Source: an uncultured Syntrophobacter sp.
Lineage (GTDB): Bacteria; Desulfobacterota; Syntrophobacteria; Syntrophobacterales; Syntrophobacteraceae
Direction of reading: 5' to 3'
NCBI GenBank assembly: GCA_964539645.1
Contig: CAZIJV010000008.1
Location: 19,461 to 83,460, forward strand
DNA: 64,000 nucleotides
Both the position numbers and the translations under genes were made by a program. Positions 4,792 to 36,569 of this stretch are shown here, in pieces (positions within the stretch are counted from its first letter, which is position 1; each line of letters begins with the position of its first letter). The notes beneath the pieces were generated by a model that saw nothing but the letters and a program-made list of their open reading frames with translations, searched no databases and was not told the DNA's origin.

Positions 4792-4824
4792 CTATTTGAC
4801 AAATAGGAATAGCTCGGTTATTTG
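4792..4824 (+). promoter_or_regulatory. candidate promoter/operator upstream of the hdr supercluster
   Basis: 15-bp palindrome CTATTTG-A-CAAATAG at 4792-4806. It contains a perfect -35 hexamer TTGACA (4796-4801). A weak -10 candidate, TATTTG, follows after a 17-nt spacer (4819-4824). The site sits in the only AT-rich stretch of the 490-bp trpF-hdrA gap. Confidence 0.3.
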
Positions 4825-5241
4825 TTCGAGCGCGTTTAAAAATTCTCTTCCAGGAGTTCCCCCCATGTATCGATCTTTCGGCTTTGGCTGAAGCAGCGCT
4901 CTTGATCCTGCCCGGGTTAGGCAGGAGGAGGGCAAGGCCGGAAGATTGTTCCGAGTTTTTGCCGTCCGGAACTGAACTGAATCCTCGCTATCTTTTTTGA
5001 CGGTCGCGGCGCCCCCCAGCGGACCGCCCATCAGAAAGACCTGATCGCCCACTGGTCAATCATCAGCGTTGCAGATCCGTATGAGTTTTCAGATGGCTGC
5101 CCGCCGTGTGCTGGACTCTATGTCCTTTCGCGGGAGGACTGCCTTATGCTCAAGCGTATGCCGGGACCATCGCAAGATGGCTGCGAGAGCTTGTCAGCAA
5201 ACGCGACGGCGACAGTACTTATTTCACAGGAGTGAAACTGC

Positions 5242-8200
5242 ATGAACGATCTACTTCAGAAGCCGGTCACAGGCTCCGTAATGGTTATCGGTGGTGGTAT
5301 CGCTGGAATACAAGCGTCGCTGGACCTCGCCGATTCAGGCTATTACGTCTACCTGGTGGAAAGCGAACCATCCATCGGCGGGGTGATGGCGCAGCTCGAC
5401 AAGACCTTTCCAACCAACGATTGCGCCATGTGCATTATGTCGCCCAAGCTGGTCGAGGTCGGCCGGCATCTCAACGTCAAACTTCTCACTCTTTCGGAAG
5501 TTCACGAAGTCACCGGCGCCCCCGGCGACTTCACTGTAAAGCTTCTTCAGCAACCTCGCTTTATCGACACCTCAAAGTGTACCGGTTGCGGCGAATGTGC
5601 AAGGGTCTGCCCCATCGAGCGAAAGAATGAATACGACATGGAGCTGAACACCCGCCGTGCGGCGTTCCGCCGGTACGCCCAGGCCGTGCCGGGCGCCTTC
5701 TCGATCGAGAAGCGCGGTACATCTCCATGCAAAGCCACCTGTCCGGCGCATATCTCGGTCCAGGGATACGTCGCCCTGGCGGCAGAGGGCAAGTACCGGG
5801 AAGCTTTGAAGCTGATCAAAGAGGAAAATCCGCTTCCGGCCATTTGCGGCCGAGTCTGCCATCATCCGTGTGAATCCGCCTGCAAGCGCAGCGAATTTGA
5901 CGAGCCGGTCGCCATAGACTCCATCAAGCGCTTCCTCGCCGACCTGGACCTCAATTCAGAGACCCGGTACGTTCCGGAGATAAAAGAGAAGCGAAGCGAC
6001 AAGGTCGCTGTCATCGGCTCAGGCCCGGCGGGTCTTTCCTGCGCCTACTACCTGGCGATTGAAGGATACCAGGTGACGGTATTCGAGAAGCTTCCCGTGC
6101 TGGGCGGCATGCTCACAGTGGGCATTCCTTCCTACCGACTCCCCAAGAACACCATTGAGGCCGAAATCCAGGTCATGCGTGACATGGGTGTTGCGTTCAA
6201 GACGGGAGTGGAGATCGGCAAGGATTTCACCATCTCTCAACTGAGAAACCAGGGATTTAAGGCCTTTTTCATGGGCATCGGCGCCCACGAATGCAAGGCC
6301 CTCGGAATTCCGGGTGAGGAGTTCGAAGGGGTCGTTCCCGGCGTCCAGTACCTCAGGGATATCAATCTCGGCAAGAAGGTCGACCTTGGAGACCGCGTTG
6401 CGGTCATAGGCGGCGGCAATGTCGCCATGGATACCGTCCGAACCGCTCTTCGCAACGGATCGACCAAGCCGTTCATTATTTATCGCCGAAGCGAGAAAGA
6501 AATGCCCGCAAACGAGGAAGAGATCCACGAATGCCGCGAGGAAGGCATCGAGATCATGACCCTCACCAACCCGAAACGCATCATTGCAGAAAACGGGCGG
6601 GTAAAGGCGGTGGAATGCGTCAGGATGGAACTCGGAGAGCCGGACGCCAGCGGACGCAGACGCCCCGTGACGATAAAGGGTTCAGAGTTCATCATGGAAG
6701 TCGATGCGGTGGTTCCTGCAATCGGACAGGAGTCCGACTGGGCGTGCCTCACCGAGGAATGCGTCTGTACGCTCACCGACTGGGGAACCATGACGGTCGA
6801 CCCGCTCACCCTCCAGACGCACGATAACGATATCTTTGCAGGCGGAGACGCGGTGACCGGCCCGAAGACGGTCATAGAAGCTATCGCGGCAGGCAAGCAG
6901 TCGGCAATTTCGATCGACCGCTACATTCGAGGCGTAGACCTGAAAGAAGGCCGAGAGAAAGAATGGAACGCCATTCGGGAAGTCTCGACCGAAGGCTACG
7001 ATAGAATGCCCCGTGCACGGATGCCCGTTGTTGCTCCCGAGATCCGCACCGGCAATTTCGAAGAGGTGCAACTCGGTTTCACCGAAGAACAGGTTCGAGC
7101 GGAAGCCGCGCGCTGCCTGAGCTGCGGCGTCTGCTCGGAGTGCTATCAGTGCGTCGAGGCCTGCCTTGCAAATGCCGTTGTTCACGGTGATACGCCCAAA
7201 GAGATCGAACTAAACGTGGGCGCAATCATTGCCGCCCCCGGCTTCAAGCCTTTCAATCCTTCGAATTTTGACACCTATTCCTACGCGCAACTGCCCAACG
7301 TCGTCACCTCGATGGAATTCGAGCGCATCCTTTCGGCTTCCGGTCCCACCCAGGGTCACCTCGCGAGACCTTCGGACCATAAGGAACCCCGGAAGATAGC
7401 GTGGCTTCAGTGCGTGGGTTCGCGAGATATTCAACATTGCGATCACAAGTATTGCTCGGCGGTATGCTGCATGTACGCCATCAAAGAGGCTGTGATTGCC
7501 AAGGAGCATGCAAAAGGCGGCCTGGACACCGCTATTTTCTACATGGATATGAGGACCCACGGAAAGGACTTCGAAAATACCTACAACCGGGCACGCGATG
7601 AACATGGCGTCAGGTTTATCCGCTCCCGCATCCATAGCATCGACCCGATTCCGGGATCTGATGATCTTGAACTAAAGTATCTGACAGAAGAGGGGGAGAT
7701 CAAGGGCGAGAAGTTCGACATGGTCGTGCTCTCCGTGGGATTGGAAACCTCGCCCAAGGCCAAAAAACTCGCGCATAAGCTTGATCTGAATATGAATGAG
7801 GATGGTTTTTGCGCGCATAGCTCCTTTGAACCTGTTTCAGCAAGCAGGCCCGGGATCTTTGCATGCGGCGCCTTCCAGGGCCCCAAGGATATTCCTCAGT
7901 CCGTCATCGAGGCAAGCGCTGCCGCCGCGGCGGCCGGGGCGCTTCTTACAAGGGCAAGAGGCGATTTTGCACGGGCAAGGGTGGTGGCGCCGGCATTAAA
8001 CGTCACGGGTGAGCGCCCCAGAATCGGGGTTTTTGTCTGCCACTGCGGGATAAACATAGGTGGCACAGTGAATGTTCCTGCTGTGCGGGATTATGCAGGG
8101 ACTTTGCCCTTTGTAGAATATGTTGCGGACAATCTCTATACCTGCTCACAGGACACCCAGGATACCCTAAGGAAGGTCATACTGGAAAACAAACTGAACC

Positions 8201-9672
8201 GAATCGTCGTTGCCGCCTGTACGCCTCGGACCCATGAGCCCCTCTTCCAGGAAACGATGGAACAGGTGGGACTCAATCGGTACTTGTTTGAGATGGCCAA
8301 CATCCGAAATCTGGATTCCTGGGTGCATGCCAACGATCCGGAAGCAGCCACACAAAAAGCGAAAGACCTCGTCCGGATGGCGGTTTCCAAGGCCGCGCTG
8401 CTTGAACCGCTTCAGGAGCCCGAACTCCAGGTGGCGCAGAAAGCTTTGGTAATCGGCGGCGGAGTTGCCGGCATGATTGCCGCAAAAACCATAGCCGACC
8501 AGGGATATCCGGTGCATCTCGTGGAGCGATCCGAGCGGTTTGGGGGGCAGGCGTTGAGTCTGCACAAGACTTGGCGTGGTGAGGATATTCCAGCCTTTGT
8601 GGGAAGACTCTCGGAAGCCGTTTCCAATCACCCGCTGATTAGCGTCCATCTTTCAAGCAGGGTGGCGCAGGTGGATGGTTTTGTCGGAAACTTTAAAACG
8701 ACGATCCAAAACGGAACTGCTTCAGAAATCGTAGAACACGGCGTGGCGGTAATCGCCACGGGTGGAAGCGAAAGCGTTCCAAATGAATACCTCTATGGTA
8801 AAGATCCTCGGGTGATGACCCACCTGGATCTGGACAGGCGCTTTGCCGATAATGATCCACGCTTAAAAGAGATCCGGAAGGCTGTTTTCATTCAATGCGT
8901 GGGTTCGCGCGAACCCCAGCGGCCTTACTGCAGCCGTCTATGCTGCACGAACACATTGCAAAGCGCCCTGCACTTGAAGGAACTCAATCCCGGCTGCGAT
9001 ATCTATGTGCTCTATCGAGACCTGAGAAGCTACGGAGAACGTGAGTCCCTCTTTCTCGAAGCCCGAAGGCAAGGCGTGATCTTTGTCCGCTATGGGCTCG
9101 ATGAGAAGCCTGTCGTGGCGGCCCGGGACGGAAAACTCCATGTAACGGTCAAAGATCATATCCTGCAACGTCCCGTGATGATCGATGCCGATCTGCTCAC
9201 ACTGGCCGCGGCCATCGTCCCGAACGAAAACGACGCCCTGGCCCAGTTTTTTAAAGTTCCCGTAAACGCGGACGGCTTCTTCCTCGAAGCCCACGTCAAA
9301 CTCCGCCCGGTTGACTTTGCAACTGACGGCGTTTTCCTGTGCGGCCTGGCTCATTATCCCAAACCCATCGACGAGAGCATTGCACAGGCCCAGGCAGCGG
9401 CATCTAGGGCGGCTACCATTCTTGCCAAGCAGACGATCCTCTTTGCTGGAACGGTTGCATCCACCAACCAGTTGGATTGCAGCGCCTGCGGGACTTGCGT
9501 GAGCATCTGCCCCTACTCCGCTCCGGGCTGGAATGAAAAGAGTGGGAAGGCGGAAATCAACCCTGCGCTGTGCAAGGGATGCGGACTGTGTGCGGCATCG
9601 TGCCGCTCCGGGGCCATTCGGCTCCAGGGCTTTGATGACGCCCAAATCCTCGCCATGATCGAGAGTCTCTAA
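5242..9672 (+). CDS. hdrA: HdrL-type giant heterodisulfide-reductase subunit A-like flavoprotein (HdrA + inserted GltD/NfnB-like NAD(P)H module + second HdrA-like half)
   Basis: 1476-aa ORF. N-terminus: VMVIGGGIAGIQASLDLADSG, TNDCAMCI, CTGCGECARVCP. Residues ~160-625 resemble the glutamate synthase small subunit/NfnB: CGRVCHHPCESAC, VAVIGSGPAGLSCAYYL, VAVIGGGNVAMD, ELGEPDASGRRRP, FAGGDAVTGP. The HdrA core then resumes: WLQCVGSRD, YCSAVCCMYA, RIGVFVCHCGINIGG, a second Rossmann ALVIGGGVAGMIAAK, and C-terminal CSACGTCVSICP / CKGCGLCAASC. Confidence 0.9.
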   Translation: MNDLLQKPVTGSVMVIGGGIAGIQASLDLADSGYYVYLVESEPSIGGVMAQLDKTFPTNDCAMCIMSPKLVEVGRHLNVKLLTLSEVHEVTGAPGDFTVKLLQQPRFIDTSKCTGCGECARVCPIERKNEYDMELNTRRAAFRRYAQAVPGAFSIEKRGTSPCKATCPAHISVQGYVALAAEGKYREALKLIKEENPLPAICGRVCHHPCESACKRSEFDEPVAIDSIKRFLADLDLNSETRYVPEIKEKRSDKVAVIGSGPAGLSCAYYLAIEGYQVTVFEKLPVLGGMLTVGIPSYRLPKNTIEAEIQVMRDMGVAFKTGVEIGKDFTISQLRNQGFKAFFMGIGAHECKALGIPGEEFEGVVPGVQYLRDINLGKKVDLGDRVAVIGGGNVAMDTVRTALRNGSTKPFIIYRRSEKEMPANEEEIHECREEGIEIMTLTNPKRIIAENGRVKAVECVRMELGEPDASGRRRPVTIKGSEFIMEVDAVVPAIGQESDWACLTEECVCTLTDWGTMTVDPLTLQTHDNDIFAGGDAVTGPKTVIEAIAAGKQSAISIDRYIRGVDLKEGREKEWNAIREVSTEGYDRMPRARMPVVAPEIRTGNFEEVQLGFTEEQVRAEAARCLSCGVCSECYQCVEACLANAVVHGDTPKEIELNVGAIIAAPGFKPFNPSNFDTYSYAQLPNVVTSMEFERILSASGPTQGHLARPSDHKEPRKIAWLQCVGSRDIQHCDHKYCSAVCCMYAIKEAVIAKEHAKGGLDTAIFYMDMRTHGKDFENTYNRARDEHGVRFIRSRIHSIDPIPGSDDLELKYLTEEGEIKGEKFDMVVLSVGLETSPKAKKLAHKLDLNMNEDGFCAHSSFEPVSASRPGIFACGAFQGPKDIPQSVIEASAAAAAAGALLTRARGDFARARVVAPALNVTGERPRIGVFVCHCGINIGGTVNVPAVRDYAGTLPFVEYVADNLYTCSQDTQDTLRKVILENKLNRIVVAACTPRTHEPLFQETMEQVGLNRYLFEMANIRNLDSWVHANDPEAATQKAKDLVRMAVSKAALLEPLQEPELQVAQKALVIGGGVAGMIAAKTIADQGYPVHLVERSERFGGQALSLHKTWRGEDIPAFVGRLSEAVSNHPLISVHLSSRVAQVDGFVGNFKTTIQNGTASEIVEHGVAVIATGGSESVPNEYLYGKDPRVMTHLDLDRRFADNDPRLKEIRKAVFIQCVGSREPQRPYCSRLCCTNTLQSALHLKELNPGCDIYVLYRDLRSYGERESLFLEARRQGVIFVRYGLDEKPVVAARDGKLHVTVKDHILQRPVMIDADLLTLAAAIVPNENDALAQFFKVPVNADGFFLEAHVKLRPVDFATDGVFLCGLAHYPKPIDESIAQAQAAASRAATILAKQTILFAGTVASTNQLDCSACGTCVSICPYSAPGWNEKSGKAEINPALCKGCGLCAASCRSGAIRLQGFDDAQILAMIESL

Positions 9673-9719
9673 GCGGACAAACCCCTCCCGGGGGAGAAGA
9701 ACAAATAAGGAGTTATACG

Positions 9720-10154
9720 ATGTCTGAGTGGTCCCCCAAAATCGCAGCTTTCCTGTGCAACTGGTGCTCCTACGGCGCGGCAGACCTCGCCGGGGTCAGC
9801 CGGTTCCAGTATCCAGCCAATATCAGGATTGTCCGCCTGCCTTGCTCGGGACGCGTCAACCCCAAGTTGATCCTGGCCGCCCTCAGGCGCGGCGCTGATG
9901 GTATCTGGGTCTCGGGATGTCATCCCGGAGACTGCCATTACATAGAGGGCAATTTGTATGCGCGGCGCAAATTCGCCCTGCTTAAAAGTCAGCTCGAATA
10001 CACGGGGCTGATCGAGCCCGGGCGGTTGCACTTCTCCTGGATTTCGTCGGCCGAGGCGACCAAGTTCGCGGAAATGGCGCGCCACGTAGTGGAATCGGTA
10101 AAAGCGGTCGGACCCGCGCAGCACTTTATCAAGAAGCAAGCTGAGGTGGCATAG
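9720..10154 (+). CDS. mvhD: MvhD/FlpD-like (methyl-viologen-reducing hydrogenase delta subunit family) protein
   Basis: 144-aa ORF. AAFLCNWCSYGAADLAG, VRLPCSGRV and VSGCHPGDCHY form the MvhD cysteine pattern. It lies 47 nt downstream of hdrA. Confidence 0.9.
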   Translation: MSEWSPKIAAFLCNWCSYGAADLAGVSRFQYPANIRIVRLPCSGRVNPKLILAALRRGADGIWVSGCHPGDCHYIEGNLYARRKFALLKSQLEYTGLIEPGRLHFSWISSAEATKFAEMARHVVESVKAVGPAQHFIKKQAEVA

Positions 10155-11102
10155 ATGCAAGCATATACCAATAAGATAAGAGAAGCGGCAAAAAGGCTGC
10201 TTTCGGAAAAACGCGTGGACGGTGTGATCGGGTTCCGCAGGGGCACGGTTCCGTTCATGAATGAACCGTTTCTGGCCAAGACCCCTGAGCATGCCGACCA
10301 GCTTGTCTGGGACGGCAACTGCGGAATAAACCTGGCCAACTACCTGCCCAAAAGAACCGGTACGGTGGCCATCGTCGCCAAGGGGTGCGATTCGCGCAAT
10401 ATTTCGATTCACCTCATGGAAAACCAGATCAAGCGCGAACAGCTCTACATCCTGGGCGCTCCCTGCAAAGGCATGACGGACAAGCGCAAGATCCAGGACC
10501 AGCTTAACGGCAAAGAAATCCTGCTGGCCGAAGATCTTGGCGATAAGGTCCGAGTGACGGGCAAGGATCTCGACCAGACCTTCAACCGTGCGGACTATCT
10601 CCAGCAAAACTGCGCTATCTGCACGCACCGCAACCCGGTTGTATACGACGAGCTTCTCGGAGAACCCGTGCAGGAACAGCAAGTCGATCCCTACGAGGAA
10701 ATCAACCGTATAGAGGCCATGCTGCCGGATGAGAAGCGCGCCTATTTCGATAAACTCGTTGAGCCCTGCATTCGCTGCTACGCATGCCGTAACGCCTGCC
10801 CCGGCTGCTACTGCCCGACCTGCTTTGTCGATGAAGCCAAACCGCAATGGGTCGGCAAGACCACCGATCCTACCGATACCCGCACCTTTCACTTTCTGAG
10901 GGCATTTCATCTTGCCGGACGCTGCACCGACTGCGGCTCGTGCGAGAGGGCCTGCCCCGTAGGCATAAAGGTGCGCCAGTTCACCAAGAAGCTGGAAAAG
11001 GAAGTAATGGCGCTCTACGGCTATGAAGCGGGCGTAATCCAGGATCAGCGGCCTCCGCTCGATACATACCGGCCGGACGATCCCGAACCGTTCCTGGGAT
11101 GA
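10155..11102 (+). CDS. mvhD-coupled iron-sulfur protein (2x[4Fe-4S]-type, AsrA/HydB/FrhB-related), function unknown
   Basis: 315-aa ORF whose ATG abuts the mvhD stop (TAGATG). Cys motifs: CIRCYACRNACPGCYCPTC and CTDCGSCERACP. It is a paralogue of ORF 21543..22337. Confidence 0.75.
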   Translation: MQAYTNKIREAAKRLLSEKRVDGVIGFRRGTVPFMNEPFLAKTPEHADQLVWDGNCGINLANYLPKRTGTVAIVAKGCDSRNISIHLMENQIKREQLYILGAPCKGMTDKRKIQDQLNGKEILLAEDLGDKVRVTGKDLDQTFNRADYLQQNCAICTHRNPVVYDELLGEPVQEQQVDPYEEINRIEAMLPDEKRAYFDKLVEPCIRCYACRNACPGCYCPTCFVDEAKPQWVGKTTDPTDTRTFHFLRAFHLAGRCTDCGSCERACPVGIKVRQFTKKLEKEVMALYGYEAGVIQDQRPPLDTYRPDDPEPFLG

Positions 11103-11168
11103 TTGGCGCGGAGAATAGGATTCCCGCCTGTGCGGGATGGTCACGAAAGCTAGAGAAGGGACAGACCC

Positions 11169-12224
11169 ATGTCTGATATTTACATCGCGAAAGCAGATTT
11201 TCCCGGAATAATAGAGAGGCTCATGAGCCGCTACCGGGTATATGCCCCCGTCAAAAAGGGCCGATATCATGAATTCACACCCTTAACCAGTGCAGCCGAG
11301 GCCGATCTTGGCTTCAAAAACACCCGTCTTTCTCCCAAAGGGATTTTCCATCCCCAGGCAGAACGGATGTTTGAGTACAGTCTCGCCAAAGACGACCCGC
11401 AGGCAGGCATCGTAAAAGAAGCCTCCAAGGATTTTTCGCCGCGCATCGTGCTCGGAATCAGACCCTGTGATGCGAAGGCTTTTCAACTCGACGACGCCAA
11501 TTTCAACACTGACACGATCAAGGACCCCTGGTGGGTACGCAGGCGCGAAGCAACGACCCTCATCGGTCTGGCGTGCAACTCGCCTTGCTCCACCTGTTTT
11601 TGTACCTCCATGGGGACCGGCCCTTTCGACACCTCCGGCCTGGACATTCTGCTGGTGGATACCGGCGACGGCTATGCCGCAAAGGTGCTGACCGAGAAGG
11701 GCAGAAACGTTCTCGGCATCACCGAAGGGTGGTCTTCGGTAACGAGCGAGGTGGAAGGTAAGATCGACGGCCTGAAAAAAACCGCCGAGCAGGGAATCGC
11801 CAAGGCCTTCGACCCGGCGCCCATCGCCGGGAAGGACATGCTGGAGCTGTACAACGCACCCATATGGGACGAGATACAGTTTGCCTGCATCAATTGCGGA
11901 ACCTGTACTTTCGTTTGCCCTACCTGCTGGTGTTTCGATATCCATGATGAAGTCTCCGGTGATAAGGGCGACCGCCTCAGACTGTGGGATTCCTGCATGT
12001 TCCCGCTCTTCACGCTGCACGGCTCCGGGCACAACCCGCGTAACCAGAAGACCCAGCGCGTGCGCCAGAGATTCATGCACAAGCTCAAATACTACCAGGA
12101 CAAGTATAACAGCGGTTCGGCCTGCGTAGGCTGCGGCCGATGTGTGCAAGCCTGCCCGGTCAATATCGACATCAGGCAAGTCGGCGCCCTGATGGCGTCC
12201 CCCGGCTGTTCATGTCCGGCCTAG
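11169..12224 (+). CDS. AsrA / sulfhydrogenase-beta-like iron-sulfur protein
   Basis: 351-aa ORF with CNSPCSTCFC, CINCGTCTFVCPTCWCFD and CVGCGRCVQACP. This cysteine architecture matches anaerobic sulfite reductase subunit A and HydB-type proteins. Confidence 0.75.
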   Translation: MSDIYIAKADFPGIIERLMSRYRVYAPVKKGRYHEFTPLTSAAEADLGFKNTRLSPKGIFHPQAERMFEYSLAKDDPQAGIVKEASKDFSPRIVLGIRPCDAKAFQLDDANFNTDTIKDPWWVRRREATTLIGLACNSPCSTCFCTSMGTGPFDTSGLDILLVDTGDGYAAKVLTEKGRNVLGITEGWSSVTSEVEGKIDGLKKTAEQGIAKAFDPAPIAGKDMLELYNAPIWDEIQFACINCGTCTFVCPTCWCFDIHDEVSGDKGDRLRLWDSCMFPLFTLHGSGHNPRNQKTQRVRQRFMHKLKYYQDKYNSGSACVGCGRCVQACPVNIDIRQVGALMASPGCSCPA

Positions 12225-12252
12225 AGCCGCTTTGCTAATGGAGGAATTTAAG

Positions 12253-13095: not shown

Positions 13096-13103
13096 AGGCC
13101 AAG

Positions 13104-15659: not shown

Positions 15660-15664
15660 GTCCC

Positions 15665-16507: not shown

Positions 16508-16525
16508 CATAAAGGAGTACCGACA

Positions 16526-17965
16526 ATGTCAGAAACGAAAGCCTCCGGCACGGCTCAGGGGGAACCGGAACCCAAGAAAACCAAAATAAACCTGAACAGG
16601 CAGGAGATGCCCAAGCAGGCGCCCGAGGCGAGGCGAAGGAACTTCGATGAGGTCGCAACGGGTTACACCTATGAGATGGCGATGGAAGAAGCCATGCGCT
16701 GCATCCAATGCAAGAAGCGCAATTGCCGGCAGGGGTGTCCCGTTAATATCGATATTCCTGATTTCATCCGCCTACTTCAGCAGAAGGACATAATGGGAGC
16801 ATCGCGTATCCTGAAAGCAAAAACTTCCCTTCCCGGCATATGCGGCAGGGTCTGTCCACAGGAATCCCAGTGCGAGAATGCCTGTACACTCAACAAGAAA
16901 GGCGCTCCAGTGGCCATCGGCCGCCTTGAGCGCTTCATTTCCGATTGGGAGCGCAAAGAAGGGGCTGTTTCCATGCCTGAGATCGCCCCTTCGAGCGGCA
17001 AACGGGTGGCCGTGGTAGGCAGCGGTCCTTCCGGGCTCACCGTCGCTTCCGATCTGGCTATTCGCGGGCATCAAATCACCATGTTCGAAGCCCTGCATGT
17101 GGCCGGCGGGGTCCTGATGTACGGAATCCCCGAGTTCCGGCTTCCCAAGGAGATCGTCCAGCGTGAGGTCGCGTATGTGTCTTCGCTGGGAGTGGAAATA
17201 CGCCTCGACACGGTGATCGGCATCAACTACAGCCTCGATGAACTGCTCAACTCGCGCTACCAGGCCGTCTACCTGGCGACCGGGGCCGGACTCCCGATGT
17301 TTCTGGGCGTGCCGGGCGAAAACCTCAATATGGTCTACTCGGCAAACGAATTTCTCACCAGGACGAACCTGATGAAGGCCTACCTCTATCCGGACTACGC
17401 CACGCCGGCGAAGATGGGGAAGCGGGTGGCCGTGATCGGCGGGGGCAACGTGGCCATGGATTCGGCTCGTTGCGCCGTAAGGCTGGGCGCGCGCGAAGTA
17501 TACGTTATTTACCGGCGTACCCGCCAGGAAATGCCCGCTCGCCTCGAAGAAGTTGAAAATGCTGAAGAGGAAGGCATCCACTTTCATTTCCTCTGCAGCC
17601 CCACGGCGTTTATCAGTGACGGCCGTAACAACGTTGCCGCGATGGAATTGATCCGGATGCGGCTGGGCGAGCCGGATGCGAGCGGACGCAGGCGCCCTGT
17701 GCCGATTCCGGGGAGTGAATACACCATGGATATCGATACGGCGGTGATTTCCCTCGGGACCTCTCCCAACCCGCTGATCGCCTCCACCACACCCGATCTC
17801 GAGACTTCGCGGCGGGGGACCGTGATAGCCGATGAGAGGGGGAAAACGTCCAAAGCGCGCGTCTGGGCCGGGGGAGATACTGTCTCAGGAGGTGCTACCG
17901 TCATCAGCGCCATGGGCGAAGGACGCCGTGCGGCGTCGGCCATTCATGAATATTTGAGCCAATAG
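16526..17965 (+). CDS. nfnB: NfnB / GltD-like NADPH-dependent oxidoreductase (glutamate synthase small-subunit family)
   Basis: 479-aa ORF with RCIQCKKRNCRQGCP, CGRVCPQESQCENAC, VAVVGSGPSGLTVASDL, VAVIGGGNVAMD, LGEPDASGRRRP and WAGGDTVSG. Confidence 0.88.
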   Translation: MSETKASGTAQGEPEPKKTKINLNRQEMPKQAPEARRRNFDEVATGYTYEMAMEEAMRCIQCKKRNCRQGCPVNIDIPDFIRLLQQKDIMGASRILKAKTSLPGICGRVCPQESQCENACTLNKKGAPVAIGRLERFISDWERKEGAVSMPEIAPSSGKRVAVVGSGPSGLTVASDLAIRGHQITMFEALHVAGGVLMYGIPEFRLPKEIVQREVAYVSSLGVEIRLDTVIGINYSLDELLNSRYQAVYLATGAGLPMFLGVPGENLNMVYSANEFLTRTNLMKAYLYPDYATPAKMGKRVAVIGGGNVAMDSARCAVRLGAREVYVIYRRTRQEMPARLEEVENAEEEGIHFHFLCSPTAFISDGRNNVAAMELIRMRLGEPDASGRRRPVPIPGSEYTMDIDTAVISLGTSPNPLIASTTPDLETSRRGTVIADERGKTSKARVWAGGDTVSGGATVISAMGEGRRAASAIHEYLSQ

Positions 17966-17979
17966 GAGAAGGTGAGCTT

Positions 17980-20900
17980 ATGTCGGAGCCGTCTCGAAAC
18001 TTGACTGGTTCGGTAATGGTCGCGGGAGGTGGAATAGCCGGTGTGCAGGCTGCCCTGGACCTCGCCGATTCCGGTTTTTACGTATACCTGGTCGAAAAGA
18101 GCGAAGCGATCGGCGGTGTTATGAGCGCCCTCGACAAGACCTTTCCGACCAATGACTGTTCGATGTGCATCCTTTCGCCCAAACTGGTCGAGTGCGGGAG
18201 GCATCCCAACATTTCGATCCTCACTATGGCCGAGGTGCGGGAAGTAGATGGGGCGGCGGGTAATTTCACCGTGAAGCTTCACCAAAGAGCCCGCTACATC
18301 GACATGAAAAAATGCATCGCATGCGGGGTCTGCGCGGAAAAATGCCCCCGCAAGGTCCCTGATGAATATAACCGGGGTCTTGGCAAGCGGAAAGCCGCCT
18401 ATGTCAAGTACCCCCAGGCGGTCCCGCTCAAATATGCAATCGATAAGGACCATTGCATCTATTTCGAGAAGGGAAAATGCCGGGCCTGCGAGAAGTTTTG
18501 CCCTGCCGGCGCCGTGAACTTCAATGACACGGACACCGATCTTACGCTGAACGTCGGGAGCATCATCCTGGCCCCCGGGTTCCAGACTTTCGATCCCGGC
18601 GCGCTCGACACCTATAACTATTCGCAGTGTCCCAATGTAATAACATCCATGGAGTTCGAACGCATTCTCTCGCCTTCCGGCCCGACCGGGGGGCATCTCG
18701 CCCGGCCTTCGGACCACAAGGCGCCGGAGCGCATCGCATGGCTCCAGTGCGTCGGGTCGCGCGACCTGAATCATTGCAGCAACGGATACTGTTCTGCGGT
18801 CTGCTGTATGTACGCGATAAAAGAGGCGGTGATCGCCAGGGAGCACAGCACGGGGCGACTCGATACCGCCGTCTTCTACATGGACATAAGGACTTCCGGC
18901 AAAGACTTTGAGAAATACTACAACCGTGCCCGAGAGGAGCATGGGGTCCGGTTCATTCGGTCTCGCATCCATTCCGTCGAGCCAGTCCATGGAACGGGCG
19001 ACCTTTTGATCCGGTATGCGGGAGAAGACGGCGTTCTGCGTGAAGAGGTATTCGACCTGGTAGTGCTTTCCGTGGGGCTGGAAACACCCCCCGAGGTTAT
19101 TGAGATGGCGCGGCGGCTTGGCGTTGAGCTAAGCGACGGTCGCTTTGCCGCAACCTCGCCTTTTGATCCAGTCGCTGTTTCCAGGCCCGGAATATTTGTA
19201 TGCGGCGCTTTTCAGGGGCCCAAGGATATTCCGCAGTCGGTCATGGAAGCTTCGGCCGCAGCCGCAGATACTGCAGCCCTCCTGGCGCCGGTGAGAGGAA
19301 CTGCGACAACAAAGCGAGAGGAAATCCCGGAGATGGACCCGGCAGGCGTCGAACCTCCGCGCATCGGGGTTTTCGTCTGCCACTGCGGGATAAATATCGG
19401 ATCGGTTGTCGATGTTCCGAAGGTAAAAGAATACGCCAAGACCCTTTCCGGTGTCGCTTACGTAGAGGAAAGCCTTTTTACCTGCTCTCAGGATACCCAG
19501 GAAAAGATGAAGGATGCCATTCGCGAATACAGGTTGAATCGCATCGTCGTGGCATCCTGCTCACCCAGAACTCATGAACCGCTGTTCCAGCAGACCATTC
19601 GGGCGGCGGGGCTGAACAAATATCTTTTCGAGCTTGCCAATATCCGGGACCAGAATTCGTGGGTCCATCAGGATTTTCCGGAAGCTGCAACTGAAAAGGC
19701 AAAAGACCTGGTCCGAATGGCCGTTGCCAAGGTGGCCCTGCAGCAGCCTCTCGCAGAAGTCCGCCTTGACGTGACCAGGAGCGGTCTGGTGATCGGCGGG
19801 GGTATTTCCGGCATGCAGGCGGCTCTGTCCCTGGCGGATCAGGGCTATCCCGTAACGCTTGCCGAAAAGAATGAAGAACTGGGAGGGCATGCGCGCAAGC
19901 TCCTCACCGTGTGGAACGGTGAGCCTGTCCGGCCCTTTCTGGACGGACTGATCAAAAAGGTTGAAAACCACCCATTGATCACGGTGCGCAAAGGCGCCGT
20001 CCTGAAAAACGTTCAGGGATTCGTGGGCAGTTTTTGCAGTCTCCTGGATGTAAATGGGAATGAGGAACAGGTGCGCCACGGTGTCGCCGTCATCGCCACC
20101 GGGGCGCATTCCTACAAACCGACTGAGTACGGCTACGGAAAGAGCAGCCGCATCTTTCTCAATCTTGACCTGGATCAAGCCATCCGGGAGCGCCGTGAGG
20201 AAGTGACCGAGGCGAAATCAGCGGTCTTCATCCAGTGCGTCGGTTCGCGGGATACCGACCGGCCTTATTGCAGCCGGGTTTGCTGCAGCCATTCGGTGGA
20301 AAACGCGATTCGCCTCATGGAACTCAATCCCGAGATGAGTGTATTCATTCTCTATAGAGACATCCGCACCTACGGCATGCGGGAGGGCCTTTACAGGGAA
20401 GCCCGGCAGAAGGGAGTTATCTTTATCCGCTTCGACCCGGACAGAAAGCCGGAGGTGGACATAGCCGGCCCCGTCCCGAAGGTCTCCATCCTTGATCCGA
20501 TCCTGCGTCGAATGGTCGTTCTGAGCGCGGATATCCTGACTCTTGCAAGCGCTATCGAGACCCGGGAGCCGGAGGCGCTGGCCAAGATGTTCAAGGTTCC
20601 TCTCAACCCGGAAGGATTCTTCCTGGAGGCCCACATGAAGCTGCGCCCGGTGGATTTCGCGACGGAGGGCGTTTTCGTCGCCGGCCTGGCGCACTGGCCC
20701 AAGCCCACGGAAGAATGCATCGCACAGGCAAAAGCCTCAGCGGCCCGGGCCGCTACGATTCTGTCCAGGGATTACATAGTGGCCGGAGGTGTCGCGGCCG
20801 TCGTCAAGGGTGAGATGTGCTCGGGTTGCCGGGCCTGCATGGAATGCTGTCCCTTCGGGGCTATCAGCTACCTGGAGCGGGAGGCTCGATGCGAGGTGAA

Positions 20901-21021
20901 TCAAGCCCTGTGCAAAGGATGCGGGACCTGCGCGGCTGCGTGTCCTTCGGAGGCGGTTACACTCATGGGATTTAGCCATCTGCAGCTCTACAGGCAGATC
21001 GATGAAGCCCTTTGGGCATAG
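17980..21021 (+). CDS. hdrA: double-module HdrA-like flavoprotein (no GltD insert)
   Basis: 1013-aa ORF. In my gapless by-eye alignment, 81 of 116 N-terminal residues are identical to ORF 5242..9672. Motifs: VMVAGGGIAGVQAALDLADSG, TNDCSMCI, CIACGVCAEKCP, WLQCVGSRD, YCSAVCCMYA, RIGVFVCHCGINIGS, LVIGGGISGMQAAL, CSGCRACMECCP, CKGCGTCAAACP. Confidence 0.9.
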   Translation: MSEPSRNLTGSVMVAGGGIAGVQAALDLADSGFYVYLVEKSEAIGGVMSALDKTFPTNDCSMCILSPKLVECGRHPNISILTMAEVREVDGAAGNFTVKLHQRARYIDMKKCIACGVCAEKCPRKVPDEYNRGLGKRKAAYVKYPQAVPLKYAIDKDHCIYFEKGKCRACEKFCPAGAVNFNDTDTDLTLNVGSIILAPGFQTFDPGALDTYNYSQCPNVITSMEFERILSPSGPTGGHLARPSDHKAPERIAWLQCVGSRDLNHCSNGYCSAVCCMYAIKEAVIAREHSTGRLDTAVFYMDIRTSGKDFEKYYNRAREEHGVRFIRSRIHSVEPVHGTGDLLIRYAGEDGVLREEVFDLVVLSVGLETPPEVIEMARRLGVELSDGRFAATSPFDPVAVSRPGIFVCGAFQGPKDIPQSVMEASAAAADTAALLAPVRGTATTKREEIPEMDPAGVEPPRIGVFVCHCGINIGSVVDVPKVKEYAKTLSGVAYVEESLFTCSQDTQEKMKDAIREYRLNRIVVASCSPRTHEPLFQQTIRAAGLNKYLFELANIRDQNSWVHQDFPEAATEKAKDLVRMAVAKVALQQPLAEVRLDVTRSGLVIGGGISGMQAALSLADQGYPVTLAEKNEELGGHARKLLTVWNGEPVRPFLDGLIKKVENHPLITVRKGAVLKNVQGFVGSFCSLLDVNGNEEQVRHGVAVIATGAHSYKPTEYGYGKSSRIFLNLDLDQAIRERREEVTEAKSAVFIQCVGSRDTDRPYCSRVCCSHSVENAIRLMELNPEMSVFILYRDIRTYGMREGLYREARQKGVIFIRFDPDRKPEVDIAGPVPKVSILDPILRRMVVLSADILTLASAIETREPEALAKMFKVPLNPEGFFLEAHMKLRPVDFATEGVFVAGLAHWPKPTEECIAQAKASAARAATILSRDYIVAGGVAAVVKGEMCSGCRACMECCPFGAISYLEREARCEVNQALCKGCGTCAAACPSEAVTLMGFSHLQLYRQIDEALWA

Positions 21022-21048
21022 AAGTTCGGCCTGATCAATCGGGCCGGG

Positions 21049-21531
21049 ATGAGACGAGGTGTTCCTGTGGAAATCAAAGGGTTCGAACCAAGAATTCTAG
21101 CTTTTCTCTGCAACTGGTGCAGCTATGCCGGAGCGGACCTGGCGGGGGTGAGCCGCCTCCAGTATCCGCCGAATATTCGCGTGATCCGGGTAATGTGCTC
21201 CGGGAGCGTCTCTGCGCACCACCTTCTTCATACGTTCCAGAAGGGGGCGGACGGGGTCCTTGTGGCGGGCTGCCACATTGGTGACTGCCATTATCTCAAG
21301 GGCAATTTCATGACTCTCAAGCGGGTCACCTTCCTCGACGGACTGCTTCGCTTCGCCGGCTATGATGCGCAACGGCTGCGGCTGGAATGGATTTCGGCCG
21401 CCGAGGGTCCCCGGTTTGCCGAAGTGGTCCGGGATTTCACCGCCCATATCAAAAGCCTTGGCCCCGCCCCTTCGCTCGAAGCGGTTCCGCTTGTGCGCGC
21501 GGCCGTCGAATGCACGGCGCCGGTTCGATAG
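21049..21531 (+). CDS. mvhD: MvhD/FlpD-like protein (second copy)
   Basis: 160-aa ORF with LAFLCNWCSYAGADLAG, IRVMCSGSV and VAGCHIGDCHY. The start is uncertain; a GTG at 21067 is also possible. Confidence 0.87.
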   Translation: MRRGVPVEIKGFEPRILAFLCNWCSYAGADLAGVSRLQYPPNIRVIRVMCSGSVSAHHLLHTFQKGADGVLVAGCHIGDCHYLKGNFMTLKRVTFLDGLLRFAGYDAQRLRLEWISAAEGPRFAEVVRDFTAHIKSLGPAPSLEAVPLVRAAVECTAPVR

Positions 21532-21542
21532 GATTGGATTGC

Positions 21543-22337
21543 ATGGATACAAAGATCAGAAAACTGCTTATTGAAGACTCCGTGTCGGGATTCGTTGCCT
21601 ACAAGACCGTGCACGGCCACCTCTTCCCATGGGTATTCACCAAGGACAATCTTGCCGAGTTGGAGCCTTGGCGGCAGACGTCCGCACGCTACCCCAACCT
21701 CAAGCTGCTGCTTGCGGTCGCCCGTCGAAATCCGGCTGGAACTTACGGGATTCTGGTCAGAGGGTGCGAGGAGCGTGGGTTGGAGGAACTCTACAAGTGG
21801 AATCAACTCCAGCGGGACAAGGTGGTTGTGCTGGGGCAGGCTTGCAGCGCTGAGCTGGCCTCCTATTGCGAATGCTGGAAACCCTATCCGGATCGGCTCG
21901 ATTTCGGCCCACCCACCCCAGGTGTCGCGGAGAGCAGCAGGATTTCGGAGTTGCACTCCATGACAGACCAGGGTCGCCTCGACTCGTGGCTTACTCATTT
22001 TAACCGCTGCATCCGGTGCCACGGCTGCCGCGATGTTTGTCCTGTTTGCTTTTGCACCGAATGCAGCCTGGAGCATACCGATCTCATTCCGGGGGACAGA
22101 CTCCCTCCGGACACATCTTTCCACCTGGTCCGCGCCGTTCACATGGGAGGGCGTTGCATAGACTGCGGGCTTTGCGAAGAGGTTTGTCCGGCCCGGATCC
22201 CCCTCCGGACCCTCTATAAGGAAGTCAATCGCCTGGTCGGGGAAATATTCGACTATAGGCCCGGAACGGCGGGGGATGGGAGGTCTCCATTCACATTCCC
22301 GGGTGAAGATTTCCGGCTTCCCCAAGGGGCCCGGTAA
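21543..22337 (+). CDS. mvhD-coupled iron-sulfur protein (second copy), function unknown
   Basis: ORF 21387..22337 trimmed to the ATG at 21543 (MDTKIRKLL), 11 nt after the mvhD stop. Motifs CIRCHGCRDVCPVCFCTEC and CIDCGLCEEVCP are collinear with ORF 10155..11102. Confidence 0.72.
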   Translation: MDTKIRKLLIEDSVSGFVAYKTVHGHLFPWVFTKDNLAELEPWRQTSARYPNLKLLLAVARRNPAGTYGILVRGCEERGLEELYKWNQLQRDKVVVLGQACSAELASYCECWKPYPDRLDFGPPTPGVAESSRISELHSMTDQGRLDSWLTHFNRCIRCHGCRDVCPVCFCTECSLEHTDLIPGDRLPPDTSFHLVRAVHMGGRCIDCGLCEEVCPARIPLRTLYKEVNRLVGEIFDYRPGTAGDGRSPFTFPGEDFRLPQGAR

Positions 22338-22493
22338 ATGCGCGGAGTCCAGCCTGTATCGGTGAGCGTGCAGGCCGGTCATGCATTGATATACGGAGAT
22401 ATACGGAAATTTTATCGATCTGCGGGTCACGCGCCCGGTGCAGATCGCGTTTTTACCAGAAATAGCAGTCTCTTGCCAGAAAAGGAGGACGTA

Positions 22494-23816
22494 ATGCAGC
22501 AAGCTCTTTTGAATCCAACACTGCCGGACCCGATAAGACAATACCTCAACAAGTTCAATTTAAGCCTTTGCCTTACCTGCGGCACGTGCACCAATGGATG
22601 TCCGGCAACCGGAACGCCGATGCTGGAGGGTCTGGACACACGTAAGGTACTGCGCATGCTGGCATTCGGCATGGTGGACGAAGTCATGGAATCGGCATTC
22701 CCCTGGGTCTGTACGGGATGCGGCAGGTGTGTGCACGGCTGTCCAATGGGGATCGATATCGTCGGGATCATGGGATACATGAAATCCCTGCGCCCGCGTG
22801 ATAAGGTGCCGGGAATTCTTCATAAAGGGGTTTTGAACGTCCTGGCCAGCGGCAACAACATGGCCATTCCCAAGGACGACTACTTCTTTCTGATGTCCGA
22901 TATGGGGCAGGAGTTGGCCGATGGGGAATGCCCCGGGTTCTACGTCCCCATTGATAAGGATAATGCCGACACCGTCTTCTATCCCAACTCCAAGGAAGTC
23001 TTTTCCGACAACGACGATATGATCTGGTGGTGGAAGATATTCTATGCAGCCCGTGAAAACTGGACCATTCCCTCCGAGAACTGGGAAGCCGTGGACTGGG
23101 GGCTGTTCACCGGCAACGGCGAAGCCACGAAAATCCTGGCGAAGAGAAAAATCGAGTTCATGAAGCAGCATAATATGGGCCGTATGATAATGCCCGACTG
23201 CGGCGGCGGCTCCTATGGATGCAGGAAGGGCATGAAAGAATGCGTGCTGGAGGATCCCAACAATAAAGTAAATCACATATACCTCTACGATTATCTCAAG
23301 GAAGTCATCCAGAGCGGCAGGATCAAGCTGGACAAAAGCCGCAACTCCGGGAAGGTCTTCACCTGGCACGACTCCTGTAAACATGGCAGGGAACTCGAAC
23401 GCAACTTCGGCAAGGCGTACTTCGATGAGCCGCGATGGATTCTGGAGCAGTGCGTGGATCAGTTTGTCGAATTCCAGCCTAACCGCATGAATAACTTCTG
23501 TTGCGGCGCAGGAGGCGGCAACTGGCCCATGCCTTATGAGAAGGAGTCGGCCTACCATGCGCGCTTCAAGTACGAACAGATCAAGAATAGCGGGGCTGAC
23601 GTGGTCGTTGTAGGCTGTTCCAACTGCCGCGACCAGATCATGAAAAGAATCCCCAAATTCTATCCCGATTGTAACTACGAAGTGAAATACATCTGGCAAC
23701 TTGTGGCCGAAAGCCTGGTCTTCGAGCCCTGGAGCGATGCCGAAGTCGCGCGGGCTGAGCAGGAGGCGAAGGCCCAATGGGAGCGCCTGGGGTTCAGCCC
23801 TGAGGAAGAGGAATGA
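22494..23816 (+). CDS. HdrD-like protein (HdrC-type 2x[4Fe-4S] + HdrB-type CCG cysteine-rich domains)
   Basis: ORF 22338..23816 trimmed to the ATG at 22494, preceded by AAAGGAGGA. Motifs: CLTCGTCTNGCP and CTGCGRCVHGCP, then CCG-type repeats (HDSCKHGRE, NFCCGAGGG, VVVGCSNCRDQ). No transmembrane partner is adjacent. Confidence 0.8.
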   Translation: MQQALLNPTLPDPIRQYLNKFNLSLCLTCGTCTNGCPATGTPMLEGLDTRKVLRMLAFGMVDEVMESAFPWVCTGCGRCVHGCPMGIDIVGIMGYMKSLRPRDKVPGILHKGVLNVLASGNNMAIPKDDYFFLMSDMGQELADGECPGFYVPIDKDNADTVFYPNSKEVFSDNDDMIWWWKIFYAARENWTIPSENWEAVDWGLFTGNGEATKILAKRKIEFMKQHNMGRMIMPDCGGGSYGCRKGMKECVLEDPNNKVNHIYLYDYLKEVIQSGRIKLDKSRNSGKVFTWHDSCKHGRELERNFGKAYFDEPRWILEQCVDQFVEFQPNRMNNFCCGAGGGNWPMPYEKESAYHARFKYEQIKNSGADVVVVGCSNCRDQIMKRIPKFYPDCNYEVKYIWQLVAESLVFEPWSDAEVARAEQEAKAQWERLGFSPEEEE

Positions 23817-23949
23817 TTGGCTTCCGATAACCGCACCTTGTGTCTGCTCGGGGGCTTCAAGCCTATGCCGGACAGGCACGAGGCGCAGAAATTCCCTGCC
23901 GGCGGCGGCCGGGACGCTCTGTGACAGGAGCACAATAGAGGAGAGGACC

Positions 23950-36564: not shown

Positions 36565-36569
36565 ACTCG

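Follow-up and report, generated by a model that had tools for sequence, protein, structure and literature searches.

Do the twelve tightly packed redox genes in the genome of an uncultured Syntrophobacter sp. (Syntrophobacteraceae, Desulfobacterota) encode a single electron-bifurcating machine without precedent, or has the cluster been assembled from parts that also occur separately? The genes occupy positions 5242–23816 of the stretch of DNA that was analyzed (64,000 nucleotides, nt; positions 19,461–83,460, forward strand, of contig CAZIJV010000008.1 in assembly GCA_964539645.1; hereafter the window), where the ORF list and Pfam and NCBIfam scans reveal twelve open reading frames (ORFs) on the plus strand, all in the same direction. 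The cluster is a composite, in which an operon of the Hdr/Flox type is interrupted by a separately conserved six-gene unit. In our preferred reading, to which we assign a probability of roughly 45%, its products would form two soluble bifurcating modules of the HdrA type, encoded head to tail before one shared thiol/disulfide reductase of the HdrD type (DsrK-like). The genes (with product lengths in amino acids, aa) and the two segments discussed with them are:

5242–9672, plus strand: gene 1, HdrL, an HdrA with a GltD/NfnB-type insert, 1476 aa (Pfam, NCBIfam, pairwise alignments)
9720–10154, plus strand: gene 2, MvhD1, FlpD family, 144 aa (PF02662, E = 8e-50)
10155–11102, plus strand: gene 3, iron-sulfur (FeS) protein FeS1, FdhB/FrhB-like adaptor, 315 aa (7bkb_E FdhB; weak Pfam match to FrhB_FdhB_N)
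11169–12224, plus strand: gene 4, AsrA/HydB-like FeS protein, 351 aa (Fer4_22, E = 4e-35)
12232–13095, plus strand: gene 5, AsrB/HydG/PyrK-like protein, 287 aa from a TTG start (FAD_binding_6, NAD_binding_1, DHODB_Fe-S_bind)
13104–15659, plus strand: gene 6, NuoG-type FdhA-like protein, predicted to be a catalytically dead scaffold, 851 aa (alignment to FdsA 6tg9 and 9wxb)
15665–16507, plus strand: gene 7, NfnA, 280 aa (NF004862 [PRK06222], above cutoff)
16526–17965, plus strand: gene 8, NfnB, 479 aa (TIGR01316, above cutoff)
17980–21021, plus strand: gene 9, HdrA2x, a permuted fused HdrA dimer, 1013 aa (three-segment match to 5odc_A)
21049–21531, plus strand: gene 10, MvhD2, 160 aa by ORF, 154 aa in existing gene calls (PF02662, E = 1.4e-52)
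21543–22337, plus strand: gene 11, FeS2, a shorter FdhB-like adaptor, 264 aa (8rvu_E, E = 1.4e-28)
22338–22493, plus strand: spacer before hdrD, 156 nt, with a 30-nt hairpin at about 22417–22446, followed by GCGTTTTT
22494–23816, plus strand: gene 12, HdrD-like protein with one CCG domain, 440 aa (Pfam CCG; HmcF, TmcB and DsrK below cutoff)
13095–22473, no strand assigned: block of genes 6–11, 9.38 kb, missing from the otherwise collinear contigs L091 and L092

With starts placed as in the existing gene calls, the successive gaps from gene 1 to gene 12 measure 47, 0, 66, 7, 8, 5, 18, 14, 27, 11, and 156 nt; the 8-nt gap separates the genes of the AsrB-like and FdhA-like proteins (genes 5 and 6). 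The original prediction, made from the letters of the window, had described this order of twelve co-directional genes, their domains, and gaps of 0–66 nt with a single exception of 156 nt; all of this was borne out by the ORFs and the Pfam and NCBIfam scans, and the profile annotation upheld each of the twelve assignments. The absences that it had pointed out were likewise confirmed: Pfam and NCBIfam detect no hydrogenase and no member of the AOR family among the ORFs tested (approximately 1–51.5 kb of the window), and no protein of the cluster has a 19-residue window hydrophobic enough for a clear membrane helix, in agreement with the stated lack of a membrane subunit.

The composite structure is evident from relatives that possess only one of the two parts. 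Two metagenomic contigs (L091 and L092), which were found via the protein cluster of HdrD, comprise the 3' end of an hdrA gene followed by genes for MvhD (144 aa), an FeS protein (315 aa), an AsrA-like protein (351 aa), an AsrB-like protein (280 aa), and HdrD (440 aa). A blastn comparison aligns positions 2–4456 of L091 with positions 8671–13094 of the window (76% identity) and positions 4528–5866 with positions 22474–23814 (81% identity); since the contigs are collinear with the window on both flanks, the window carries a 9.38-kb block that they lack. No direct repeats were found at the borders of this block; the repeats that were detected reflect only the paralogy of HdrL, HdrA2x, and NfnB.

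The reverse situation was encountered in a scan of species-representative genomes anchored on the FdhA-like protein, which yielded four full-length relatives (L002–L005), all in metagenome-assembled genomes (MAGs) labelled Syntrophobacterales, Syntrophobacteraceae, or delta proteobacterium. When these were searched with the twelve proteins of the window (tblastn), genes 6–11 were present in conserved order in all four, with identities of 86–92% for NfnB, 75–86% for HdrA, and 44–66% for the FdhA-like protein, and genes 1–5 were absent; in L002, genes 6–12 occur without genes 1–5 and are preceded by unrelated genes. The order FdhA-like protein, NfnA, NfnB, HdrA2x or HdrL, MvhD, FeS protein of about 263 aa is maintained in every family-level locus with enough sequence. 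Besides the window, the six-gene unit is intact in at least 15 loci (L002–L005, Desulforhabdus amnigena, Desulfosoma caldarium, Desulfoferrobacter suflitae, L086, L089, L095, L097, L098, L099, L102, and L104), with its short spacers retained; the genomes include those of an uncultured Desulfobacterium sp. and a Deltaproteobacteria MAG. Six of these loci (L095, L097, L098, L099, L102, and L104) are the ones of sufficient length among 12 family-level loci recovered by a profile-based scan of metagenomic contigs, and all six are complete. In Desulfacinum hydrothermale, the unit is cut by the contig end within its fourth gene. The twelve genes are therefore not the indivisible unit that had implicitly been supposed: L091 and L092 are devoid of genes 6–11, L002 is devoid of genes 1–5, and many genomes possess only genes 6–11. 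The search for the gene order in other genomes came to the same result, with the exact order of all twelve genes found in no other locus examined.

Additional genes for fused HdrA proteins are located beside the unit in L003, L005, L089, and L102. L089 (positions 14374–23045; LT984854.1) is a second such "supercluster", with a module order unlike that of the window: after the unit come a distant HdrD (32% identity), an HdrL of 1484 aa, a 257-aa protein with an MvhD domain, and another fused HdrA.

Both large HdrA proteins of the cluster are fused dimers. Three segments of HdrA2x match the HdrA of M. thermolithotrophicus (5odc_A) in permuted order (residues 12–382 to HdrA 146–510, residues 458–615 to HdrA 2–159, and residues 860–1008 to HdrA 497–647); HdrA2x is therefore a fused, permuted HdrA dimer. 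HdrL has the architecture of HdrA2x with 473 extra residues (159–631) inserted within the inserted ferredoxin domain of the first of its thioredoxin-reductase-like (TrxR) domains (TrxR1). This insert shows 40% identity to residues 67–477 of the NfnB of the window and retains the Arg of the GIPxxRLPK motif (GIPSYRLPK) that is equivalent to Arg187 of T. maritima NfnB; the fusion of HdrA to a GltD-type NAD(P)H/FAD module, with mvhD as the next gene, identifies the first gene of the cluster as hdrL. Each of the two proteins possesses two FAD-binding TrxR domains, but the Lys and CxxC of a bifurcation-type site are present only in the first. In the self-alignment of HdrA2x, TrxR1 has Lys281 (equivalent to Lys409 of methanogen HdrA), Cys60/Cys63, and the inserted ferredoxin domain, whereas TrxR2 has Glu774 at the position of the Lys and lacks both the CxxC and the inserted domain. 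In HdrL, TrxR1 has Lys748 (again equivalent to Lys409 of methanogen HdrA) and Cys61/Cys64, and TrxR2 has Gln1240 in place of the Lys. By their sequence, HdrA2x and HdrL thus have one bifurcation-type flavin site apiece, which refines the earlier count of two HdrA-type candidates by adding to each protein a second TrxR domain without Lys or CxxC. In HdrA and in BamE, the fused HdrA of the class II benzoyl-CoA reductase (BCRII), the inserted domain is the low-potential exit (10.64898/2026.04.10.717634); the insert of HdrL, by its location in that domain, would place an NfnB-type flavin directly on the low-potential exit.

The first gene of the six-gene unit encodes what appears to be a catalytically dead formate dehydrogenase (FDH) scaffold. 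In the alignment with FdsA of R. capsulatus (6tg9) and with 9wxb, the Mo-ligand Cys386 of FdsA is replaced by Arg373 and its catalytic Arg587 by Phe562, and the statement that the cluster lacks an intact FDH holds. The six closest orthologues have Arg, Gly, or Asn at the ligand position and Phe, Leu, or Tyr at the catalytic position, and the segment is poorly conserved; all six nevertheless share, without exception, the Cys/His sets that one [2Fe-2S] and four [4Fe-4S] clusters would be expected to need. The same trend is present in the entire family: not one of about 80 protein clusters (38–66% identity) has Cys or selenocysteine (Sec) at the ligand site or Arg at the catalytic site, which are mostly occupied by Gly and by Tyr or Phe, respectively, whereas more distant true FdhA matches in the same alignment show CH...R. 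The FdhA-like protein also diverges faster (41–66% identity) than the neighboring proteins (69–92%), which fits the role of a scaffold. In the databases, members of the family are labelled "molybdopterin-dependent oxidoreductase" or "formate dehydrogenase alpha subunit", so that about 80 protein clusters can now be flagged as annotated in this way yet lacking the catalytic residues.

Intact NuoG-type FdhA genes (with TGA or a Cys codon, then His, and the catalytic Arg) often precede homologs of NfnA and NfnB in metagenomes, for example in L112, L113, L115–L118, L120, L123, L126, L142, and L145, in some cases with an extra NfnB-like gene. These loci look like a widespread candidate for an Nfn-linked FDH; in the literature examined, the only adjacency of this kind is that of fdhF2 with nfnB in Seep-SRB1g. 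Because of this frequent association, the FdhA-like family of the window looks like a derivative of the FdhA–NfnAB trio that has lost catalysis.

The two proteins encoded next are canonical. NfnA scores 319.5 bits for NF004862 (cutoff, 220) and matches the small subunit of P. furiosus NfnI (5jca_S; E = 5e-71); NfnB scores 574.7 bits for TIGR01316 (cutoff, 471.75), matches T. maritima NfnB over its full length (4ylf_B; E = 8e-167), and retains the Arg beside N5 of the bifurcating FAD (GIPEFRLPK; Arg187 in T. maritima). The gene context suggests that NfnAB has a bound partner, for which there are structural precedents. NfnB matches 8oh5_C and 9bov_A at residues 102–498, and the FdhA-like protein matches the same chains at residues 604–863 and 565–1080, respectively; NfnB-like and NuoG/FdhA-like domains are thus fused in solved proteins. 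Homologs of FdhA, FdhB, and HdrA, in turn, are chains of the same Fdh–Hdr entries (7bkb, 8rvu, and 9t1s).

FeS1 and FeS2 both match the F420-type FdhB chain of Hdr-containing entries (7bkb_E, 8rvu_E, and 9t1s_M). The match of FeS1 to 7bkb_E (E = 6.5e-22) is restricted to FdhB residues 31–134 and 292–389, in line with its N-terminal FrhB-type and C-terminal two-[4Fe-4S] domains; for FeS2, whose start at position 21543 is fixed by orthologues of 263–264 aa, the match is to the C-terminal FeS domain of 8rvu_E (E = 1.4e-28) and of 7bkb_E (E = 9e-23). In the comparison with the PDB chains, neither protein matches the central FAD/F420-binding domain of FdhB. FeS2 had been called a paralogue of FeS1, and so it is, if a distant one (25% identity, E = 9e-23). 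MvhD1 and MvhD2 are of ordinary short length (144–160 aa) and have no in-frame TGA. MvhD2 shares 50% identity with MvhD1-type proteins and 70–86% with its orthologues in the six-gene unit, and MvhD1 shares 81% identity with the protein in the same position in Syntrophobacter fumaroxidans (L084) and 88% with its counterpart in L091. If the Flx letters are assigned by position, MvhD1 would take the place of FlxD in the Hdr/Flox arrangement. The counterparts in S. fumaroxidans of the other proteins of module A are 74% (FeS1), 69% (AsrA-like), and 88% (AsrB-like) identical, the last value also applying to L091. The AsrA-like protein, which occupies one of the Flox-protein positions, scores below the cutoffs for the sulfhydrogenase beta subunit and AsrA. 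The AsrB-like protein has the FAD, NAD(P), and [2Fe-2S] domains of a FlxA-type subunit; its start was placed at the TTG at 12232, but the ATG at 12238 may be the true one.

The putative thiol/disulfide reductase is the HdrD-like protein, which combines an HdrC-like N-terminal domain for two [4Fe-4S] clusters (matching HdrC chains in the PDB) with one intact CCG motif (C295...C336-C337-G...C375xxC378). An alignment with L002 and L003 shows that its N-terminal CCG region is degenerate, and that of S. fumaroxidans HdrD even more so; the cluster indeed contains only a single CCG catalytic domain, as had been noted. Among the NCBIfam families, the protein comes closest to HmcF, TmcB, and DsrK but stays below the cutoff of each. 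Genes for orthologous HdrD proteins (75–86% identity) follow the six-gene unit in the window, L002, L003, and L104 and immediately precede it in L102, L103, and L105; this linkage in variable order argues for a functional tie, not merely shared inheritance.

The 156-nt gap before hdrD is genuine: the ATG at 22494 is preceded by AGGAGG at a distance of 6 nt, and orthologues share this start. The hairpin in the spacer, approximately 45–75 nt before the start, recurs in the same place but with differing arm sequences in L003, L091, and possibly L002, in the case of L091 although the upstream gene differs. It may serve in attenuation or stabilization of the transcript, as weakly suggested by these four sequences; the predicted RNA fold of the entire spacer does not exceed that of shuffled sequence in stability (z = 0.05).

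From homology, we infer the electron paths, the direction of flow, the acceptor, and the physical binding of NfnAB as follows. Module A (genes 1–5) would be an NAD(P)H dehydrogenase of the Hdr/Flox type, in which the AsrB-like flavoprotein accepts hydride from NAD(P)H and electrons pass via the AsrA-like and FdhB-like FeS proteins and the [2Fe-2S] cluster of MvhD to the bifurcating FAD of HdrL. In module B (genes 6–11), each adjacent pair of components has a precedent, and NfnAB is therefore proposed in place of the lost active site of FDH (or that of a hydrogenase). NADPH would be bifurcated at the b-FAD of NfnB; the high-potential electron would move through NfnA to NAD+, and the low-potential electron via the [4Fe-4S] clusters of NfnB into the dead FdhA/NuoG-like scaffold, along its wire of five clusters, and by way of FeS2 and then MvhD2 to the TrxR1 domain of HdrA2x with its bifurcating FAD (Lys281). 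The HdrA flavin of either module would then divide the pair of electrons. HdrD would receive one of them, in keeping with the transfer from HdrA to HdrC/HdrD-type subunits in Hdr and BCRII, and hand it on to a protein disulfide or trisulfide; the second would leave through the inserted ferredoxin domain to ferredoxin or, in HdrL, to the built-in NfnB-like module instead. The entire system may also run in reverse (confurcation). BCRII is a precedent for two coupled bifurcation modules, and the Nfn-linked module appears to resemble its double-bifurcation design.

The acceptor of HdrD is most likely a sulfur carrier of the DsrC or TusA type, and most plausibly DsrC, which has been proposed as a partner of Flx-Hdr-type complexes in studies of S. 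fumaroxidans and of the sulfate reducers that are partners of anaerobic methanotrophic archaea. Genes of the TusA type are located beside related units. In D. amnigena (L083, positions 14441–16792), HdrD is replaced: the unit is followed by a second MvhD-like gene and genes for a TusA-domain protein and a 348-aa protein. In L087 (positions 21709–24473), genes for TusA, a Sulf_transp protein, and a Se_S_carrier protein are present near an HdrL/FdhA cluster. This context hints at sulfur carriers as partners.

A more far-reaching version of the scheme is tentative and, in our estimate, somewhat improbable. The products of genes 6–11 would join HdrD in a double-bifurcation supercomplex of a second kind, in which the Nfn flavin is hard-wired to the HdrA flavin via a fossil FDH followed by an FdhB-like adaptor and MvhD. 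NAD+ would serve as the sink, NADPH would be raised to a potential like that of H2 or formate, and in sulfate reducers both ferredoxin (or an acceptor with a potential lower still) and a carrier of the DsrC/TusA type would be reduced at once; HdrL would realize the same idea at the other end, with an NfnB-like flavin on the low-potential output of HdrA.

Several observations weigh against the two-module scheme or parts of it. No gene for DsrC was found among the ORFs of the window that were tested. HdrD is absent beside the unit in D. amnigena, D. caldarium, and D. suflitae, so that the high-potential partner is not fixed. Serial bifurcations also raise the question of what needs electrons of such low potential. 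The units of L086 and L102 have an HdrL as their HdrA, with separate NfnAB still present; the insert of HdrL is hence not simply a fused NfnB, and the notion of HdrL as a Rosetta-stone fusion of NfnB with HdrA2x that replaces a separate NfnB is ruled out. Moreover, alignments to solved Nfn proteins reveal no obvious docking insertion in NfnA or NfnB, and the canonical, full-length NfnAB could therefore work with free ferredoxin.

The last point leads to a serious alternative, although one to which we give clearly lower odds than to the two-module scheme: NfnAB may be a free transhydrogenase that is merely co-transcribed and rebalances NADH, NADPH, and ferredoxin for a separate complex of FdhA-like protein, FeS protein, MvhD, and HdrA. 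Such a role would agree with scores above the curated cutoffs, with the end-to-end alignments to solved Nfn of T. maritima and P. furiosus, and with the occurrence of nfnAB in many different metabolic gene clusters of other organisms (PMC6405883). However, this view leaves the FdhA-like protein with a NuoG-type N-terminal extension for which the unit offers no flavoprotein partner. Furthermore, NuoG-type FdhA, NfnA, and NfnB recur as a trio in distant lineages, whether Hdr genes accompany them or not; solved enzymes contain fusions of GltD-like with NuoG-like domains; and the gene order and short spacing of the unit are kept despite the divergence (41–66%) of the FdhA-like protein.

It is considerably less probable that all twelve products form one obligate supercomplex, a single machine of twelve subunits. 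The genes are co-directional and tightly spaced, with no terminator-like site in any gap, and the combination of two fused-HdrA paralogues with a single HdrD recurs in the cluster of S. fumaroxidans; L003, L005, and L089 also have more than one fused-HdrA gene. Nevertheless, the halves are separate in close relatives (L091 and L092 versus L002 and many others), and the twelve-gene order has no second instance among the loci examined. Very unlikely is the view that the FdhA-like protein is still an enzyme, with a non-canonical site and another substrate, and as such the real electron donor of module B: its Molybdopterin and Molybdop_Fe4S4 domains are still recognizable, a His comes directly after the ligand position both in this protein and in many relatives, and a partial relative on a 1313-nt contig (L131; 46% identity over residues 1–407) has TGA-His at the Mo-ligand position, but a Cys/Sec ligand or catalytic Arg occurs in 0 of about 80 family clusters, the ligand is mostly Gly in one of the least conserved segments of the protein, the Molydop_binding match is marginal, and the protein evolves much faster than its neighbors (41–66% versus 69–92%). 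L131 itself may represent a still-active close relative of this otherwise dead family.

The surroundings of the cluster offer no further partner. No synteny is conserved beyond the cluster, neither in the flanks of the window nor upstream of L002–L005, where the upstream genes differ between loci, and the same regions contain no BamB/AOR or other catalytic partner; the flanks that were scanned yielded only trp genes, AAA+/Lon, a sulfatase, a sigma-54 activator, and proteins without assigned function. A scan for promoters and terminators (positions 4700–24600) gave counts at or below the expectation from shuffled sequence, with no match inside the intergenic gaps; the sigma-54 promoter pattern occurs at chance level and not upstream of hdrL. 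Directly upstream, on the same strand, lies a complete trpE-trpG-trpD-trpC-trpF run (positions 33–4751), which has no relation to the redox genes. A perfect palindrome (CTATTTG-A-CAAATAG; positions 4792–4806) in the AT-rich beginning of the 490 nt that separate trpF from hdrL could be an operator. Downstream of the cluster are small ORFs without assignment and genes for a zinc-ribbon and a radical-SAM protein. An ORF of 170 aa just after hdrD (positions 23950–24462) has no Pfam match but a 66% identical counterpart in the same position in L002 (20835–21323), and it may belong with hdrD. A qmoABC-like trio is located about 11 kb downstream of the cluster (positions 35152–40062) and encodes a QmoA-like HdrA homolog (470 aa), a QmoB-like fusion of HdrA and MvhD (740 aa), and a QmoC-like protein (413 aa) with a full-length match to qmoC (200 bits; cutoff, 300); directly upstream of the trio, there is no ORF long enough for aprA. 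Taken together with the relatives of the cluster, the trio assigns the source to the sulfate-reducing Syntrophobacterales.

Cytoplasmic electron transfer among NAD(P)H, ferredoxin, and DsrC in sulfate reducers and syntrophs is largely unresolved, and almost no reactions have been assigned to the HdrA paralogues of Desulfobacterota. If the conserved operon indeed joins NfnAB to an HdrA core, bifurcation modules from different families would prove capable of being linked in a chain, as reported for benzoyl-CoA reductase (10.64898/2026.04.10.717634); it would also explain how NADPH could power reactions of the HdrA type, for which H2 or formate is normally required. The unit occurs in four cultured sulfate reducers, strains of Desulforhabdus, Desulfosoma, Desulfacinum, and Desulfoferrobacter, and is thus open to purification and assay.

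How, then, does the cluster compare with known systems? The original interpretation is partly supported. It was right in kind, in that a soluble, modular bifurcating or confurcating assembly linking NAD(P)H, ferredoxin, and a disulfide-type acceptor fits all homologies; it overstated the lack of precedent and merged two modules into one. The idea as such had already been published for Flx-Hdr and for the Hdr/Flox system in S. fumaroxidans (Sfum_1969–1977), which is related to HdrABC/FloxABCD (FlxABCD-HdrABC) of Desulfovibrio vulgaris (PMC5947623). Nor does the claim that the arrangement matches none known apply to the entire cluster. Triads of HdrL, MvhD, and FeS protein are known, and genes 1–5 and 12 have the same order as Sfum_1974–1969 (49–88% protein identity), which encode a fused HdrA (1013 aa), an MvhD (FlpD, 143 aa), an FeS protein of about 315 aa (316 aa), an AsrA-like protein (Fer4_22, 350 aa), an AsrB-like FAD/NAD protein (280 aa), and the HdrD orthologue. 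The MvhD and two FeS subunits encoded next to hdrA (genes 2–4) match Sfum_1973–1971, as expected of an Flx-Hdr system. Another fused HdrA and an MvhD-like gene precede these genes in the cluster of S. fumaroxidans, which thus shares with the window two fused HdrA proteins and one HdrD; the replacement of HdrBC by HdrD, the two hdrA genes, and the detection of the Flox proteins under all growth conditions have been reported (PMC5947623). The Desulfovibrio-type HdrABC with a two-CCG HdrB is absent: like S. fumaroxidans, the window has neither hdrB nor hdrC but a single, one-CCG HdrD. It differs from S. fumaroxidans in that its first HdrA is an HdrL with an NfnB-like insert and in the six extra genes between the AsrB-like gene and hdrD; the Hdr/Flox cluster of S. 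fumaroxidans lacks FdhA-like and nfnAB genes, and its NfnAB is encoded elsewhere (Sfum_2150–2151).

HdrL was defined in Desulfobacterium autotrophicum HRM2 (PMC2702500). Its loci in that species and in S. fumaroxidans (Sfum_0819–0824, HdrABC/HdrL) have, as does the window, the HdrA/GltD fusion followed by mvhD and an FdhB-like FeS gene but continue with true FdhA, dsrABC, or hdrABC, whereas the window continues with the AsrA/AsrB-like pair. The methanogen complexes FdhAB-MvhD-HdrABC (7BKB, 8RVU, and 9T1S), whose HdrA, FdhB, FdhA, and MvhD (FlpD) all have relatives in the window, are a structural precedent for the order FdhA, FdhB, MvhD, HdrA. By contrast, the FdhA of the window lacks the active site and has a NuoG-type N-terminus, its FdhB-like proteins have no match to the FAD/F420 domain, its HdrA is a fused dimer, and HdrBC is replaced by the one-CCG HdrD. 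In SfrAB of Geobacter, StnC of Sporomusa (8OH5), and NsoC of Thermococcus (which we take to be the 9BOV chain), a GltD-type NADPH flavoprotein is joined to a NuoG-type multi-cluster protein with a molybdopterin-like domain; in the window, the respective genes are separate with that of NfnA between them, lack a partner of the NuoEF/HydBC type, and are followed by HdrA, MvhD, and the FdhB-like protein.

A parallel to the six-gene unit is BCRII of Geobacter metallireducens, Bam[(BC)2DEFGHI]2, whose BamE is likewise a permuted fused HdrA dimer, with a bifurcating FAD (Lys280, Cys59/Cys62) and a non-bifurcating FAD (Gln768) (10.64898/2026.04.10.717634). In a comparison by published residue numbers, these residues correspond to Lys281, Cys60/63, and Glu774 of HdrA2x. 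Both systems also have MvhD as an adaptor, a subunit resembling HdrD in which the second CCG site is degenerate, a NuoG-like wire without catalytic function, and a bifurcating flavoprotein module of another family that feeds (in the window, presumably) the HdrA core. Unlike in BCRII, a BamB/BamC tungsten reductase is encoded neither by the ORFs of the window that were tested nor by those scanned upstream in related loci; the window has no genes of the NuoE/NuoF type and NfnAB instead of the HydBC-like BamGH, a short MvhD without Sec in place of the long, Sec-containing BamF, and an extra FdhB-like adaptor. The full-text literature that was searched covers the neighboring concepts of Flx-Hdr, HdrL, the fdhF2–nfnB adjacency, and BCRII but contains no description of the six-gene unit, although other papers may include one. 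The conserved unit of FdhA-like protein, NfnAB, fused HdrA, MvhD, and FdhB-like protein (genes 6–11) is thus apparently undescribed and, together with its parallel to BCRII, is what the locus adds to the known systems.

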